Origin: a virus | Length of the DNA stretch: 43,577 nucleotides | Virus record (IMG/VR): IMGVR_UViG_3300045988_012481 | Location: 1-43,577 of that record | Reading direction: 5' to 3' (one strand) | Part shown: positions 4,456-10,008 of the stretch, one piece after another | Numbering within the stretch: position 1 is the stretch's first letter | Layout: each line of letters opens with the position of its first letter | Notes under the pieces: generated by a model | What the model was told of the DNA's origin: nothing | Seen by the model: only the letters and a program-made list of their open reading frames with translations | The model's database searches: none | Translations under genes and position numbers: made by a program

Positions 4456-5631
4456 TTATTCAATTACTTTCATTCGTTCTGCCTGTGTCGGAAGCTGCGC
4501 TGCACGGCTGAAATTACGGTATTCTTTGCGCAAGCGCTTTATGCGGATAGATGTTTGTTGTTCTTTGTCTACCATTCCTGCGGCATTGTAGGCGATTCTA
4601 CGGCGCTCCAGCTTTCGCACCGTCCGTTCAATCTTGCGTTGCATTTGCGTTGCTTCATACGCTGTATAAGTAACGCCCTCAAACTCAAACGGTGGTTTAT
4701 CAATGTTTTCAAGCTGTTCGTCGGTGTAAACGCGCTCGGAAACGCCCTCAACAAAGGGGTGCTTGTGGTGTCGGCAGTTCGCACCTTCCAAGCCGTCAAC
4801 TTCACCCAGGCCACAAACCGCGTAAATGCTGGGATACTTGCCGCCGGTCTTGGTGCTGTAAACCTTGCCTTGCCACTTCTTGTGATTTGACCAAACGTGC
4901 GGTTTGTTTACGTCGCGTGCTCCCCTATGCGCTGTAATCTCATACAGTTCAGTTTCAAGCGTTTCTGCGGCGTTCTCCGCATACTTTGCCGTAAGCTGAT
5001 TCAAGCCCGTTAGAACGGCTCTACGCGCCGCAACGTCCGCGTGGTCACGGTGTCCGCTTGCGTAGTCAATGGTGTATATGCCGCTGTCTGCGAGGTCTCG
5101 CACAGCGTCCTCAAACGCCTGCTGCAACGTAAACGCTCCAGACTGCACTTTCACTTCTGCTTTGTCTAACGCTGCTTGATATGCCTTTGCGATTGGCTGG
5201 AATGTGATTCTGCCGTTTGTCTGCGCTGCAAAGCCAAGTGAACGAGTAATGTTTCGATATCCGTCAAGCGTCTGTTCCTGTATCTGCGCAATATCTGCGG
5301 CAGACACCCAGAAAAGCGGTTCGGTTACGCTCGCCTTGGTTGCAAGCTCATCGTAATACTTCTGGTTGTACTCAACTACACGCTCAAGCGCGTTTTGTAC
5401 TTGCGGCGTTGTCTCTTTGCTGTGCTTGGAAATGATATTTTCGATAGCGTCCATATCAAGACCATAGGCGCGTAAGACGCGAATGTCATTCATTGCGACT
5501 TCGTTAAACTCTCCGGTCAGTTTGAACCGTTTACAGATTTCGCGCAGAATATCCTTTTCCAACTCGCGCATCGCAATGGCGATTGGTTCAGGAGCAGCGT
5601 CTAAATACTCCGGTGTGATGGGGAATTTCAT
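4456..5631 (-). CDS. Minor head protein, SPP1 gp7 / Mu F family
   Basis: 391 aa. ATGA overlap with the portal stop. Motif ...AHRGARD...HKKWQGKVYSTKTGGKYPSIY...GLEGANCRHHKHPF. Confidence 0.8.
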   Translation of the reverse strand: MKFPITPEYLDAAPEPIAIAMRELEKDILREICKRFKLTGEFNEVAMNDIRVLRAYGLDMDAIENIISKHSKETTPQVQNALERVVEYNQKYYDELATKASVTEPLFWVSAADIAQIQEQTLDGYRNITRSLGFAAQTNGRITFQPIAKAYQAALDKAEVKVQSGAFTLQQAFEDAVRDLADSGIYTIDYASGHRDHADVAARRAVLTGLNQLTAKYAENAAETLETELYEITAHRGARDVNKPHVWSNHKKWQGKVYSTKTGGKYPSIYAVCGLGEVDGLEGANCRHHKHPFVEGVSERVYTDEQLENIDKPPFEFEGVTYTAYEATQMQRKIERTVRKLERRRIAYNAAGMVDKEQQTSIRIKRLRKEYRNFSRAAQLPTQAERMKVIE

Positions 5632-7049
5632 TCAATTTCTTCTTCCTCCTCATCGGTCATATCCTGTGCTTTCGGCAGCATCTGTTTCGCTGTCTCGTCG
5701 TCCTCATTTAACCATTTGGCTCTGAACTCCCAATCGTTCATGATTCCGGCGTTCAGCAGCTGCATATCGCGCGAAAAGTCAGTGTCCTTGTCCTCGATAA
5801 TGCTATCGTCAAAATCAATACTGATTTCAACATCTTCATCAAGTCCGGCGTTCATCGCCTCATTGCCGAGGTGCAGGATAATCCTGCACAGTTCTGTTAA
5901 TGCCTGCTCCAAGATGATTTCATGCTTCTTGATAGTGCGGAACATTGTACTGTTCTCACTAATGACCTGCGTTGCAGTTGCTACGCTTGCGCCGTTGAAG
6001 CGATAGTAATTCTCGCCGAATCCCGTCTTGCTGGAAAGCAAATCAAGCTGATCTTGAATACCTTGATTGTGCTCCGCTGTACGCAAAGACATATCAATAG
6101 GCTGTACCACATTGCCGTCCTGCGTGTCCTCCGGCAGCACATAATACGCCAGTTCATCCGGGTCAAACACCGGTTCGCCGTCAAGATACTGCGTTGCAGC
6201 AGGCTTGACCATAATGCGCTTTTTGCCGAGCAGAAACTCGTTTACATAGCTGTCGTATGCGATATCAACGCCCTTGAGAACGTCGATAGCGTTTGCATAG
6301 ACCGGAATGCCGAGCGGAATGTAATAATCAAAGTTGTTCGCGATGTTCAAACGATCAATCACAAACTGCCGCTTGTTTGAACCGGTATGCACAACAGGTG
6401 GAATTTTTTCAAACCCCGGCACGCTTGCAAGGCTTTCTTCAAACAAACTTTCATTTGTGATTTTGAAAATGCGGTTTTCGATGTCGTAAAATCCGATTTC
6501 ATTTCGCTTGTGGATTTGCAGATAGCAGTAATCCTCGCCTTTCACGGTGGTTCTGCTGTCGAACGCGCATTCCATGATAACGCCGTTCTGCCATGCCAGA
6601 GGGAAAATGTGCTCTACAGTCACATAATCAATCTGAATGCCGTTTGCTGCGCCCACAATAGGCTGTTCGCCGTCCGACACTGCACCGACAACACGCGGAA
6701 TGTATGCGACCGTACCCAGTGCAGACTTCATTTCCTGCATCTCGTTCGCCTTTACCTCGAAGTTGTTCTCTTCAAAGATGCGGTCGATGAACGCCTGTTC
6801 TTTCTCGCCCTCCAAGGTGATTTTCACCTTTTCGTTCATGAGTAGGTTCGCCCAGTCCTCGGCTAACTTCTTGGCCATACCGAGCGTATATCGCTTGCAA
6901 TGCACGGTTCGGCCGCAGTTCCGCACCTTGTAATGGTGGAATGACTTCACATCACCCACATACCAGCTGCGCCACTCCGCAACCTTACCGTAAAACTCGG
7001 GGGCGATTGTGTTATAGCCGAGCTCTTTCAGTTTTTCAATGATCGTCAA
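5628..7049 (-). CDS. Portal protein (SPP1 gp6-like), TTG start
   Basis: 473 aa immediately after TerL (TTGA overlap), with an acidic C-terminus. Size and position are typical of portals. Confidence 0.9.
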   Translation of the reverse strand: MTIIEKLKELGYNTIAPEFYGKVAEWRSWYVGDVKSFHHYKVRNCGRTVHCKRYTLGMAKKLAEDWANLLMNEKVKITLEGEKEQAFIDRIFEENNFEVKANEMQEMKSALGTVAYIPRVVGAVSDGEQPIVGAANGIQIDYVTVEHIFPLAWQNGVIMECAFDSRTTVKGEDYCYLQIHKRNEIGFYDIENRIFKITNESLFEESLASVPGFEKIPPVVHTGSNKRQFVIDRLNIANNFDYYIPLGIPVYANAIDVLKGVDIAYDSYVNEFLLGKKRIMVKPAATQYLDGEPVFDPDELAYYVLPEDTQDGNVVQPIDMSLRTAEHNQGIQDQLDLLSSKTGFGENYYRFNGASVATATQVISENSTMFRTIKKHEIILEQALTELCRIILHLGNEAMNAGLDEDVEISIDFDDSIIEDKDTDFSRDMQLLNAGIMNDWEFRAKWLNEDDETAKQMLPKAQDMTDEEEEEIE

Positions 7050-8287
7050 GCAATCACTCCCATTCTTCTGTAAACGCGCTCAAGGGCGTATCTCGTGGCG
7101 TCAATCAGATGGTTCTTTTCATCTGGATAGCCGCTGATGATCTCGCCGTCCTTGTCGCGCTCATACTCATAGTTCACAAACTCATCATAGGCGTGCGGCG
7201 TTCGCTTGCGGTCGATGACAAGTGTCCTGCGCTGTAGCCACTTCATGCCGTACTCGACACTGCCGGGGCCCTTCACGGCCTCTTTGGCAGGCAGTCGCAT
7301 AGCGCGGTAGTCTGCAACGCTTTTTGGCTCTGCACTGTCGCAGGTGATAAACGTATCATTATAGCCGCGCTCCATGATAATACCGGCGCTTTCCTCGTTA
7401 CTCAGCTTGTTTTTGTATATCTCATCGATAAAATACACCGTCTCACGCGCCCTGTCGTAGTGAACGCGGATAAAAGCGAACGGGTCGGGGAACCATCCCC
7501 AGTCAGCGCCTTGATAGATATGATCGAACGTTGCCACCTCATCGTCTGTGATTTCTCGCAGTTCAAGGTTTTCAAAGACGTTGCCGCCCGTGCCGACCGG
7601 AATGCCGAGGTATTCATGCTGATACGCTCGCTCGTTCGTCAGTTTTAGGTGCTCCGCCTCATAAATAAACTGATCGCCTAACCACTCGCGCGGCGCTTCA
7701 AGGTACGTGCTGCGGTGGCAGAGACGGTCAGGGCGTTCTTCTAAACTGTCCTTGTTCGCCCAGTTGTCGCGGCTGATCGGAGGGTTATAACTCTCAAAGT
7801 TCCAATACTTATCACCGCCGCGCATTGTAGACTGCAAGATCGTTCGGATTTCCGCGCGTCCTGCGAACTGGTCTTTCTCCTCGAAATGCGTAACAGCAAT
7901 ATAACCAAACGGAACCTTGATTGACTTGATTTTCATCGGGTCATCAGCGCCGCGAAACATGATTTTCTGTCCGGTCGGGCGATATATCAGCTCCATCGGC
8001 GATACCTTCGCGTCCCAGTAGTCAGCCATGCCCAGCTCACCAATTGCCCATACATACTGTGCGTATACACTATCGCGGATGGTGTTTGCAACCTTGCGTA
8101 ACACAAGCGCATGCGTTCCGGGGTTGTGGATAAGCAGTAGCGGAACGACAATCGACACAAACGACGATTTCAGCGAGCCCCGGCCGCCGCTCTCATCGTA
8201 ATGTGTGTGACCATGCTCAAACACATCGTGCGCAACGGCGTAAAATGCCGGTCCGATGATCTGCGAGAGCTTCAACTCAGACATCAA
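7046..8287 (-). CDS. terL: Terminase large subunit (PBSX/Terminase_3-like)
   Basis: 413 aa. Walker A-like GGRGSLKS near the N-terminus and a C-terminal nuclease-type region (...ITCDSAEP...HLIDATRYALE). Confidence 0.95.
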   Translation of the reverse strand: MMSELKLSQIIGPAFYAVAHDVFEHGHTHYDESGGRGSLKSSFVSIVVPLLLIHNPGTHALVLRKVANTIRDSVYAQYVWAIGELGMADYWDAKVSPMELIYRPTGQKIMFRGADDPMKIKSIKVPFGYIAVTHFEEKDQFAGRAEIRTILQSTMRGGDKYWNFESYNPPISRDNWANKDSLEERPDRLCHRSTYLEAPREWLGDQFIYEAEHLKLTNERAYQHEYLGIPVGTGGNVFENLELREITDDEVATFDHIYQGADWGWFPDPFAFIRVHYDRARETVYFIDEIYKNKLSNEESAGIIMERGYNDTFITCDSAEPKSVADYRAMRLPAKEAVKGPGSVEYGMKWLQRRTLVIDRKRTPHAYDEFVNYEYERDKDGEIISGYPDEKNHLIDATRYALERVYRRMGVIA

Positions 8288-8594: not shown

Positions 8595-8672
8595 TTACTT
8601 TTCCCTCCCTTTCCCAAAAGAAAACCGGCTGGGACGCTATTCCCGGTCGGCGTACTTTTGAGTGTTTTTTCA

Positions 8673-8780
8673 TCAGGCCGAGGACGACCGCGCGCGGGAA
8701 GCGCCTGCTTCCCGACGACCCGAAACAAAGTTACGGACGCGAGTTCCGATAGATCGTGCTGCTCTTCTGATTGCCTTCAT
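8673..8780 (-). CDS. Small basic ORF (35 aa, MKAIRRAARSIGTRVRNFVSGRREAGASRARSSSA)
   Basis: Strong RBS AAAGGAGGTGA 6 nt upstream of the ATG at 8780. It is the first ORF after the terminator hairpin. Not in the track because it is under 60 aa. Confidence 0.35.
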   Translation of the reverse strand: MKAIRRAARSIGTRVRNFVSGRREAGASRARSSSA

Positions 8781-8807
8781 GCAGTTCACCTCCTTTTATT
8801 TATGCAA

Positions 8808-8841
8808 CGAAAAGGACTATCTTTGCAGATAATCCTTTTCG
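8808..8841 (-). terminator. Intrinsic terminator / attenuator just upstream of the late (packaging) operon
   Basis: Minus strand reads AAAAGGATTATCT-GCAA-AGATAGTCCTTTT followed by CGTTGC: a 9-bp core stem with a GNRA loop and a U-run. Confidence 0.6.
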
Positions 8842-9335
8842 TGTTTAGTTAGTCTCCTATAGTTCTGCCTAAATATTCCTTTGACCCTTTCCCAACCCGC
8901 GCGAATTTCAGATCGCCAGTTTTAATAGGTCTTTTCACCGCCCGGCTCACGCAGCCATCCGGGCGTGTTTGCGGTGTCTGTCGCCCATAGACACCGCATT
9001 CCATTCTCATTCTAGCGTAAATGTTATTACTCCGTCACCCTCATGCAGGCTTTGGAGCATATCGGCGTGCCGCGCAAAAAGACACGCCGAAAGAATAGAA
9101 AGGATAATCAATGCCTTCGTTCCGCGAAAGGCGTTTTGCTCCTCTGCCCTCATGCAGACTTTGGAGCAGGTCAGCGGCAGGTCTCCCCACCGCTTTAAGT
9201 AGGTATTTGGGGTTAAACAGAAAGGCTTGTCACCCGTCAACCCTCACGCAGGCTTCCGGGCGTGTACCCGCCTTTCGGCGGGCTGAAAGCGGAGGAACGA
9301 AACTCCGTGATTCCGCCCTTTAGGGCTTTTATCAC
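8842..9335 (-). ncRNA. Candidate ~0.5 kb structured non-coding leader RNA with four tandem two-element modules
   Basis: No credible ORF. The region is bounded by an extended -10 promoter and a terminator. Four repeats of variable-sequence hairpin plus conserved CTGC(A/G)TGAG motif, with compensatory changes between copies (see findings). Confidence 0.45.
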
Positions 9336-9341
9336 GATATC

Positions 9342-9350
9342 ATTATACCA
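9342..9350 (-). promoter_or_regulatory. Extended -10 promoter element TGgTATAAT
   Basis: Minus strand reads ...AAGAATGGTGGTATAATGATATC...; no good -35. Located 40 nt downstream of the late-regulator stop codon. Confidence 0.45.
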
Positions 9351-9389
9351 CCATTCTTTGTAGTATTGTGTAGCCCGTTTTCCACAGCT

Positions 9390-9662
9390 TTATGCACAGC
9401 CTGTGCGTATATGTTCTACTGCCCGCAACGCCCGCGCGTGCATCTTTCCACGAACGTGCACTTCGTTGTAATTCATTTTCTCGGCGGTTTCTCTCCACGT
9501 CCGACCGTTTACATAGTGCTCGATCAGCAGCGCCCGCAGCGCCGCATCCTGTACCTTAGCCGTTGTGCTGATAATCTCAGCCTTAATCAGTGCAAGCCGT
9601 TCCTGCTCTCGCTGTATCTTCTCGGACAGGGCAAGATACGCATCCGCCTTGTTTGCGGTCAC
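9390..9662 (-). CDS. Late transcription regulator, sigma-70 region-4-like / DUF1492-RinA-like (GTG-start 90-aa version; see frameshift finding)
   Basis: C-terminal ...LLIEHYVNGRTWRETAEKMNYNEVHVRGKMHARALRAVE is a region-4-type HTH. The frame stays open upstream to 9809 with no canonical start. Confidence 0.6.
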   Translation of the reverse strand: MTANKADAYLALSEKIQREQERLALIKAEIISTTAKVQDAALRALLIEHYVNGRTWRETAEKMNYNEVHVRGKMHARALRAVEHIRTGCA

Positions 9663-9792
9663 GTCACCGCCGCCGCCCGGCGTGTCCTTGATCGTCGCTG
9701 TTGCGCTTGTCGCCCGCGTCCACGCCCTTACTCGTGCTTCTTCCAGTGCAGAGATTGATTTTTCAAGGTCAATCCCTCGTCTGAGCCATTCT

Positions 9793-10008
9793 TTAGTCGT
9801 CGTGTGCCACTACCTCCTCCATACCGCGCTGTGTATATCGCCTACGACGGCTGATTCTCGCCGCCTTGCGGACGCAACCCACACCCGGTTCACATCCGCG
9901 CGATTTCCCCGTGTCGATCAAATAATGACACGCCCATAGCTTAGACCCTTGGCTTGTACCCAGTACCCTCCAGTATGCGCACCCAGCGCATTCGCTTTTC
10001 TTTTTCAT
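9793..10008 (-). CDS. Small Cys-rich protein (71 aa)
   Basis: ATGA coupling to the upstream gene. CxxC plus further Cys/His residues (CAGCAYW...CHYLIDTGKSRGC). Confidence 0.5.
   Translation of the reverse strand: MKKKSECAGCAYWRVLGTSQGSKLWACHYLIDTGKSRGCEPGVGCVRKAARISRRRRYTQRGMEEVVAHDD

Follow-up and report, generated by a model that had tools for sequence, protein, structure and literature searches.

What occupies the apparently gene-free half kilobase between the late regulator gene and the packaging genes of the phage recorded as IMGVR_UViG_3300045988_012481? In this stretch of 43,577 nt (the window, that is, the whole DNA analysed; sequence statements were checked on its minus strand, which is the gene strand), the order on the minus strand is the regulator, the gap, an open reading frame (ORF) of 35 amino acids (aa) at 8780-8673, terS at 8594-8277, terL at 8287-7046 and the portal gene at 7049-5628. 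An earlier note, made from the letters alone, had described the gap as a complete, four-module leader of about 0.5 kb. We find instead a truncated copy of a large structured RNA that had not been catalogued, of which this region is the repeat-module part proximal to the promoter; the array is the 5' third of an RNA of 0.8-1.2 kb whose 3' domain has been deleted in the window. The full element is present in about 150 related human-gut phage contigs, and it represents a previously uncatalogued structured RNA family, absent from Rfam 15, that heads the late genes of this phage group.

The array repeats a 41-nt core as four direct copies (8933-8973, 9027-9067, 9136-9176 and 9230-9270, with a spacing of 94, 109 and 94 nt), its units measuring 94-109 nt and its cores being 61-78% alike. 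This four-copy array, the extended -10 promoter at 9350-9342 and the four upstream hairpins of unrelated sequence are all present as the earlier note had given them. On the RNA strand a module covers about 52-70 nt in total and consists of a strong hairpin of variable sequence (Pa), a linker of 2-5 nt and a second hairpin (Pb/Pc), the latter made up of a 6-bp Pb, a purine-rich internal loop (AAAG, GAAG or GGAU on its 5' side) and a Pc of 3-5 bp, which is always closed by C-G and U-G and presents a nearly invariant hexaloop, GCRYGA. The element CTGC(A/G)TGAG singled out earlier is the top of this second hairpin, reading C, U, the loop GCRUGA, G, G. Pa carries GAAA, GAGA or longer loops in the window and UUCG or GAAA in relatives. 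Three modules of the window are intact and the fourth is chimeric; the first begins about 55 nt after the inferred RNA start. The parts of the element in the window are the following.

9342-9350, minus strand: extended -10 promoter TGgTATAAT, TGGTATAAT, without a good -35; start of the structured RNA
9306-9336, minus strand: 5' hairpin P1, CGTGAT...GCCC-TAAA-GGGC...ATCACG, from the minimum-free-energy fold
9229-9282, minus strand: module 1 (D in the earlier note), Pa CCCGCC-GAAA-GGCGGG, then Pb/Pc with hexaloop GCGUGA; model match 9264-9227, 46.9 bits
9135-9194, minus strand: module 2 (earlier C), Pa AGCGGUGGG-GAGA-CCUGCCGCU, then Pb/Pc with hexaloop GCAUGA; model match 9170-9133, 50.4 bits
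9026-9089, minus strand: module 3 (earlier B), Pa CGGCGUG...CACGCCG, then Pb/Pc with hexaloop GCAUGA; model match 9061-9024, 49.6 bits
8932-8998, minus strand: module 4 (earlier A), chimeric; model match of 25.2 bits with deletions
8946-8953, minus strand: deletion junction with the 8-nt microhomology TGCGTGAG, from a three-way alignment
8843-8945, minus strand: spacer, identical to positions 4513-4620 of the relative L114, lying downstream of the RNA 3' hairpin in full-length relatives

A covariance model of Pb/Pc, built from eight modules, found only the four module sites in the 43.6 kb of the window, all on the minus strand, three of them at 47-50 bits (E ~1e-10) and the fourth at 25 bits. 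Compared with shuffled sequence, the fold of the 546-nt region stands out more on the gene strand (z = -7.5) than on the opposite one (z = -4.5). The earlier view that no credible ORF lies here holds: the array contains only unconserved ORFs of 30-77 aa without a ribosome-binding site (RBS), near-identical relatives differ by a 1-nt indel in the hairpin loop of module 3, which would frameshift ORFs of the array, and no ORF is conserved across the element of the relatives.

Relatives (loci numbered L) were collected by three routes, namely an exact-pattern scan with two cores, which returned many IMG/VR contigs and also chance matches in coding DNA rich in GC, a scan with the regulator protein, which returned additional contigs, and further DNA patterns, which returned loci from IMG/VR, one GTDB genome and 63 human-gut metagenome loci; on the RNA side the mining consisted of exact-pattern scans. 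One match in a host genome was a metagenome-assembled genome of Subdoligranulum variabile (GTDB). No similar DNA was found among GenBank phages by blastn in distant mode with the array and the full RNA as queries. The earlier note could name no known family, and neither could a search of Rfam 15, with its models for GOLLD, ROOL, OLE, HEARO, raiA, EAR/epsC, ribozymes and riboswitches: the whole window and four full-length relatives gave no match at gathering scores, and lenient thresholds (E <= 5-10) added only chance-level matches and a tRNA in L283. ARAGORN found no tRNA or tmRNA in the window.

Comparison of the aligned relatives supports a functional, strand-specific structured RNA rather than a DNA repeat, as the earlier note had preferred, because pairing is kept with compensatory and G-U changes on the gene strand only. 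For Pb/Pc, 150 module matches, 50 of them distinct, gave 95.6% of cells paired, against 81.5 +/- 1.1% when partners were shuffled (0/500 shuffles) and about 30-52% when they were slid, figures that are supportive and not a formal test, since the modules are in part paralogous and the model itself guided the alignment. Double-sided changes occur at 4 of the 10 pairs (CG 29/GC 20; GC 25/CG 14/AU 4/UG 4; UA 21/CG 17/UG 10; UA 35/CG 5), and G-U or U-G makes up around one fifth of the paired cells, pairs that would be A-C mismatches on the opposite strand. In nearly all of the 143 distinct 50-mers upstream, a Pa hairpin stops immediately short of Pb, with a mean energy of -17.8 kcal/mol in the sense and -15.2 kcal/mol in the antisense direction and with z < -2 in 83%, and its orthologous variants are compensatory or pass through G-U, as in GUCU/AGAC, GCCU/AGGC and GACUG/CAGUC or in the series GAGGCGG/CCGUCUC, GAGACGG/CCGUCUC and GAGGCGG/CCGCCUC. 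The 5' hairpin P1 is likewise compensatory in clade II (CGTGG...GCTCC-AAG-GGAGC...CCACG). By contrast, the competing CACGC/GCGTG helix proposed earlier holds within the window but is no better than column composition over the 50 distinct modules of the family, where it is 85.6% paired against 85.2% in shuffles.

The full element was recognised by reading the relatives L114 and L121 and aligning four representatives. It measures 818-1187 nt in 39 distinct full-length copies and runs from the promoter through the 5' hairpin and two to five modules (one or two in a distant clade) into a 3' domain of about 400-620 nt. Conserved blocks of this domain are ATTCTGnCnGnnCGGAAAGACG...CTGTTTcCGAAC, GGTAAAAGCCCGACG, CATACC and GCTGAAAGCGGGTGC, and the terminal 3' hairpin combines a covarying stem with the conserved loop ATGGCTTYGG. 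In an alignment of 28 sequences of the 3' domain, covering three main clades at 55-97% identity, RNAalifold showed double-sided changes at 26 of 61 pairs. A fuller consensus of 165 pairs was 91.9% paired, against 85.4 +/- 0.2% after shuffling and about 40% when slid, and had double changes at 49 pairs against 28.6 +/- 2.9 in shuffles (0/500); since this alignment also served to derive the structure, the paired fraction is inflated, whereas the surplus of double changes relative to shuffles is not. Among the 39 distinct full-length elements, two modules occur in 3, three in 8, four in 12 and five in 16. The number shifts via recombination between modules, as hybrids in L075 and L110 indicate; the loci concerned are L075 320-1190, where the hybrid joins module 2 to module 5, L110 ~5994 (minus) and L159 3316-4212. 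Modules 1 and 2 of clade II carry the loop GCACGA.

The truncation of the window copy was traced by BLAST to a single gap, window 9935-8938 aligning to L114 2728-3725 and window 8956-7191 to L114 4505-6270. About 780 bp are absent from the window in comparison with relatives that are 96-99% identical in the flanks, and the missing part comprises the rest of module 4, module 5, the whole 3' domain and the terminal hairpin. To the left of the microhomology the window corresponds to module 4, and to its right it is identical to the L114 site past the terminal hairpin of the RNA; the chimeric module 4 has Pa and the 5' half of Pb/Pc from the ancestral module 4 and its 3' half from a site that lies beyond the 3' hairpin in relatives. 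Because module 4 is chimeric, its stem GCCCGG/CCGGGC, which the earlier note had counted among the compensatory changes, is a by-product of the deletion and not evolved covariation. The 26-mer across the junction is absent elsewhere, both from IMG/VR and from metagenome contigs, thus the truncated form is not recurrent and is a rare allele. A collapse by the assembler is an unlikely source of the deletion, the 8-nt microhomology being too short for it. A promoter scan of the spacer at 8843-8945 revealed no recognisable sigma-70 promoter.

The distant clade departs from this plan in several ways. A tRNA gene ends its structured region (L266 4750-4823, L276 7620-7693, L283 4267-4340), tRNA-Met (CAT) in two loci and with no anticodon called in L283. 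The structured region is split in L266 (3450-4290) and in L276, where a first part with one or two modules is followed by inserted genes (reverse-strand genes in L266, a forward 77-aa ORF with RBS in L276) and the second part starts with another hexaloop module and a CGGAAAGACG hairpin. No hexaloop modules were found in the distant phages L330-L336, whose regulator is about 30-38% identical. One of these, L332, is a different phage with a regulator of 33% identity; its promoter and the first stretch transcribed (TATAATGATAGTGTGAGAATAG) are similar, and its non-coding leader of 514 nt includes a putative tRNA-like sequence at ~4570-4645, read by eye.

The order late regulator, promoter, structured RNA, terminator or terminators and late operon, as laid out earlier, proved to be real and conserved. 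Around the element the window has these features.

9390-9797, minus strand: late regulator gene of the DUF1492/LtrB superfamily, sigma-region-4-like; the mechanical ORF is 9390-9662, with conserved coding up to ~9797
9359-9373, minus strand: CTACA-N5-CTACA, a direct repeat of 10-nt period that overlaps the -35 position; candidate activator site
8807-8842, minus strand: inverted repeat with 16-nt arms, 94% complementary, and a GCAA loop, flanked by an A-tract and a U-tract; intrinsic-terminator-like, of the bidirectional type
8673-8780, minus strand: 35-aa Arg-rich ORF (MKAIRRAARSIGTRVRNFVSGRREAGASRARSSSA) with the strong RBS AAAGGAGGTG, found only in some relatives with the terS type of the window
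8612-8650, minus strand: second terminator-like hairpin (8650-8625) followed by UUUUCUUUU, ending ~18 nt before the terS start codon
8277-8594, minus strand: terS, small terminase of the helix-turn-helix (HTH) type, followed by terL (7046-8287) and portal (5628-7049)

The regulator lies directly upstream of the RNA, on the same strand, in all 134 loci with enough upstream sequence (of 149 RNA-pattern loci). Its true length is about 135-137 aa, translation and alignment showing that the conserved N-terminal part extends upstream of the called GTG start. Taken alone, the window regulator falls below Pfam cut-offs; among 25 aligned homologs, 15 match DUF1492 (best E 6.6e-8) and 14 match Sigma70_r4_2. 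An AlphaFold2 model (pLDDT 85.8) consists of a long helical hairpin and a C-terminal domain, which superposes in Foldseek on the -35-binding sigma4 domains of extracytoplasmic function sigma factors with a TM-score of 0.66-0.75. From these matches and the predicted fold, the regulator belongs to the DUF1492/sigma4 Ltr late-activator superfamily. Two other affiliations were considered and rejected. No Q structure occurred among the 249 Foldseek matches, of which the top 50 listed were mostly sigma-factor chains or sigma4 domains; the regulator and its homologs reached 20-22 bits with Phage_antitermQ (PF06530), below the cut-off of 26; and neither the regulator, nor its homologs, nor the two small proteins encoded upstream matched PF17362, the family of ConAn1. 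A PDB sequence search with the regulator profile gave no match, and tblastn against plasmids returned one unrelated record only.

The start of the regulator gene is peculiar in its own right. The N-terminal ~45 residues (TKEWLRRGIDLEKSISALEEARVRAW...) are encoded upstream of 9662, the only ATG/GTG/TTG start (window 9663-9809, next to an ORF at 9793-10008), and an in-frame stop precedes them with no canonical start between (...*WHTTTKEWL). Clade II relatives have an ATG at the equivalent position (MTAKEWL), overlapping the stop of an upstream Zn-ribbon-like ORF. This suggests that the regulator of the window clade may use a non-canonical start (possibly ACG), translational coupling or reinitiation, or a recoding event.

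The RNA starts at the conserved extended -10, ~40 nt past the regulator stop, and is directed toward the packaging genes. TGnTATAAT, TATACT or TACAAT is found at the promoter in all clades, down to 41% regulator identity, and relatives have ACCACA-N4-ACCACA where the window has the CTACA repeat. Direct repeats a short way past the regulator's own gene are the binding sites of Ltr proteins, and one promoter drives the whole late operon (Quiles-Puchalt et al., PMC3753634). The promoter is putatively an Ltr-dependent late promoter, since its extended -10 is conserved, its -35 is poor, the CTACA repeat lies at the -35 position and the Ltr systems provide the precedent.

Downstream of the array, the terminator hairpin with the GCAA loop described earlier is present within the inverted repeat 8842-8807, as GGATTATCT-GCAA-AGATAGTCC followed by TTTTCGTT at 8835-8806, and between it and terS lie the 35-aa ORF and the second hairpin. 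Each of the four terS contexts inspected (window, L003, L026 and L283) has an intrinsic terminator 20-40 nt before the terS start, which leaves no room for a promoter there; the hairpins are non-homologous, and those of the three other contexts are stronger than that of the window. Wherever terS was found it is co-directional with the RNA (73/73 loci), at 738-5919 nt from the RNA anchor hairpin, and it belongs to one of two unrelated families (the HTH type of the window, or Terminase_2), which are mixed with both RNA/regulator clades. The interval between RNA and terS is empty in the window and L114 type, holds reverse-strand gene blocks in L121, L159 and L026, and holds an ORF or tRNA genes in L266, L276 and L283. 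In L026, three ATTGAGCAATGATAA-like boxes surround a TGTATAAT promoter (9100-9182) ahead of an ORF of 60 aa that, as a guess from the sequence, may encode a ribbon-helix-helix-like protein, and a strong terminator then precedes terS; the whole looks like a small autoregulated cassette placed between RNA and terS. The Arg-rich ORF, which has no Pfam or PHROG family, was detected in 12 of the 149 loci (tblastn, E <= 1e-5). Its start region CTGCATGAAGGCA (8772-8784) matches the module core at 12 of 13 positions, with the start codon at the position of the hexaloop AUG, and the Pb/Pc covariance model left this site unscored. Within the spacer that separates modules 2 and 3, 11 nt (GAUUAUCCUUU, 9099-9109) are complementary to the 5' arm of the 8842-8807 hairpin (8828-8838); an anti-terminator pairing of the two was rejected, as such a match is estimated to be at about chance level in 750 nt and the spacer is kept in relatives that lack the hairpin. 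A scan for terminators inside the late operon showed no enrichment over shuffles, and is uninformative because it misses the 8842-8807 hairpin.

What could such an RNA do? Because a terminator precedes terS in every terS context, our best guess, to which we would give slightly less than an even chance, is a leader RNA that acts in cis, as put or conAn2 does, to render late transcription resistant to terminators. On this reading the promoter would depend on the activator and serve the late genes, whose transcript would have the RNA as its leader; while still nascent, the RNA would act in cis on the transcribing polymerase, directly or via a host elongation factor, and the polymerase would then pass the intrinsic terminators between leader and terS as well as embedded cargo cassettes. 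The iterated two-hairpin modules would be the units presented to the polymerase, as in HK022 put, and three intact modules could leave the truncated copy at least partly active. Circumstantial support comes from the linkage to the regulator, its Ltr family, the form of the promoter, the terS terminators, the cargo and the put-like build of the modules, and antitermination is a plausible idea on these grounds. We are more doubtful of the wider proposal that a very large (0.8-1.2 kb) RNA class with put-like modules and an ornate 3' domain might by itself make the host polymerase terminator-resistant across the late operon of Clostridia-type gut phages, coupled to an Ltr-type activator.

Several points weigh against the leader function. 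The antitermination model assigns no role to the 3' domain of ~400-620 nt, conserved and covarying as it is, and the retention of this domain in all relatives fetched, together with a deletion junction seen in no other contig, suggests that it is probably under selection. To our knowledge, the element is 2-15 times larger than any known antiterminator RNA. Many relatives hold 1.5-5 kb of reverse-strand genes between RNA and terS, and late transcription would therefore run antisense through them; an unrecognised activator-dependent promoter may lie nearer terS, upstream of the last terminator. Distant phages with homologous regulators (~30% identity) are without the RNA, thus the regulator does not need it. 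Finally, the sequence diversity of the family is modest, the three main clades lying at 55-97% identity.

The best surviving rival is a stand-alone, trans-acting ornate phage RNA occupying the niche of GOLLD and ROOL, made from its own strong promoter and ending at the 3' hairpin or by processing, an explanation that we would bet against, if not heavily. The RNA would then be a scaffold, cage, decoy or ribonucleoprotein core, the hexaloops would be tertiary or quaternary contacts or multivalent sites, and the window copy would be a crippled remnant. The size of 0.8-1.2 kb, the many covariation-supported helices of the conserved 3' domain, the retention of that domain in all relatives and the unique deletion junction fit such an RNA, as do the terminal hairpin with its conserved loop on a covarying stem (followed, however, by only 3-4 U in the main clades, hence a weak terminator) and an extended -10 promoter that needs no -35. 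GOLLD and ROOL often adjoin tRNA genes, and tRNA genes end the structured region in the distant clade, with a tRNA-like sequence also in L332; however, the element shows no similarity to GOLLD, ROOL, OLE, HEARO or raiA models even at E <= 5, and in L276 the ORF with RBS that stands between the structured parts on the same strand makes the RNA part of an mRNA there. At its centre, CRYG, the hexaloop is self-complementary in most cases (CAUG, or CGUG through wobble pairs) and may allow loop-loop contacts, but the GCACGA loops of modules 1 and 2 in clade II lack this self-complementarity. A stand-alone RNA also leaves the terS-proximal terminators and the strict linkage to a late activator unexplained.

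It is improbable, in our judgement, that the RNA is a multivalent platform or sponge that binds one copy of an RNA-binding protein per GCRYGA hairpin, the protein being of the phage (for example, the Arg-rich 35-aa peptide) or of the host. Such arrangements have parallels in boxB/N, MS2-type operators and CsrB-type sponges, and a nearly invariant loop on a covarying stem, iterated one to five times in variable copy number, is what a platform would look like. The 12/13 core match over the start of the Arg-rich ORF would also fit a factor that binds both modules and start site, but the covariance model gave that site no score, and an ORF detected in only 12 of 149 loci is not a general partner. 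No candidate RNA-binding protein is linked to the element, and the linked regulator has the fold of a DNA-binding sigma4 domain.

That the cores are double-stranded DNA boxes, either a pac/cosB-type array for the small terminase, an alternative that the earlier note had raised, or extra operators for the activator, is very improbable. An 11-bp core repeated at ~100 bp spacing near packaging genes, an HTH-type terS and a regulator with a DNA-binding sigma4 domain would all suit it. However, the element is linked to the regulator and not to terS, and the variable distance to terS (0.7-5.9 kb) and the two unrelated terS families speak against a role as pac site or TerS box; the cores are situated within the transcribed region, past the promoter, their flanking arms covary with a share of G-U pairs that is relevant to a single strand of one polarity only, and the Pa hairpins keep their structure while their sequence differs. 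Finally, recombination-prone, functionless and decaying duplicated repeats, although the module number does vary by unequal recombination (the L075 and L110 hybrids) and the window copy is itself a deletion product, are just as improbable in view of a promoter, hexaloop and pairings that are kept between clades at ~55% identity and in a clade with 41% regulator identity.

RNAs of more than ~500 nt whose structure is conserved are rare in bacteria and phages, and new biology has followed from each new class. The RNA described here occurs abundantly in human-gut phage contigs, at a constant position behind a late-activator gene, and its modular build, its natural copy-number variants and the natural 3'-domain deletion of the window ease structure-function work. 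If it does control read-through into terS, the RNA-based processive antiterminators, so far put, EAR and conAn2, would gain a fourth member and their first example from a phage late operon in Gram-positive hosts, and the terminator that precedes terS in these phages would be accounted for. For annotation, the lesson is that 'gene-free' gaps of 0.5-1.6 kb before terS in gut phages can be RNA genes.

Among known systems, the late control region of lambda has the same order of regulator, promoter, non-coding transcript, terminator and late genes. There, Q is followed by the strong promoter PR', the non-coding 6S RNA, the terminator tR' and the late genes, and cargo or tRNA genes sometimes come after the terminator in lambdoid and Stx phages. 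The differences are that the regulator here does not have a Q-like fold and that the leader is 3-6 times longer, with conserved structure. GOLLD and ROOL resemble the element in being very large, highly structured RNAs of phages and prophages of Firmicutes, but no Rfam model matches, and the tandem hexaloop modules and the fixed position behind a late-activator gene set it apart. A ToxI-like type III toxin-antitoxin array was also considered and rejected: ToxI arrays consist of near-identical tandem repeats of ~34-45 nt, followed by a terminator and an endoribonuclease toxin gene, whereas the units here measure 94-109 nt with cores 61-78% alike and the next gene is the 35-aa ORF or terS (judged from the side of the array).

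The Ltr units (RinA, ArpU, LtrA, LtrB = DUF1492, LtrC) share with the present locus the regulator family, its place upstream of the late promoter and packaging genes, the distal direct repeats and the single late promoter (PMC3753634). In the staphylococcal and streptococcal units the intergenic region is short, with the ltr terminator and then the promoter, and no large structured RNA has been described, whereas the promoter here is trailed by 0.5-1.2 kb of structured RNA and terminators. In conAn of pLS20-type plasmids, the ConAn1 gene and then a large cis RNA, conAn2, head a long terminator-studded operon, and antitermination permits differential expression of embedded cassettes (PMC8191782). 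The likeness is one of layout only (a small protein gene, a large RNA and a very long operon with terminators and cassettes on a Gram-positive mobile element), since ConAn1 has pXO2-34 (PF17362) and the regulator here is sigma4-like and DUF1492-type without a PF17362 match, conAn2 is ~300-380 nt with a GC-rich tract and two stem-loops and not a module array, and the operon serves plasmid conjugation there and late phage functions here. HK022 put, a cis-acting RNA of ~70 nt with two stem-loops, binds the beta' zinc-binding domain (PMC9378689). Like put, the element is a cis-encoded phage RNA just downstream of a promoter and upstream of terminators, with more than one copy of the unit per genome, and in build only its modules of 52-70 nt recall the two adjacent stem-loops of ~70 nt (PMC9378689). 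However, put occurs as one unit per operon in the early operons of a lambdoid coliphage and acts through the E. coli beta' zinc-binding domain, whereas the RNA described here has one to five tandem units and an extra domain of ~400-620 nt in the late operon of Clostridia-type gut phages.

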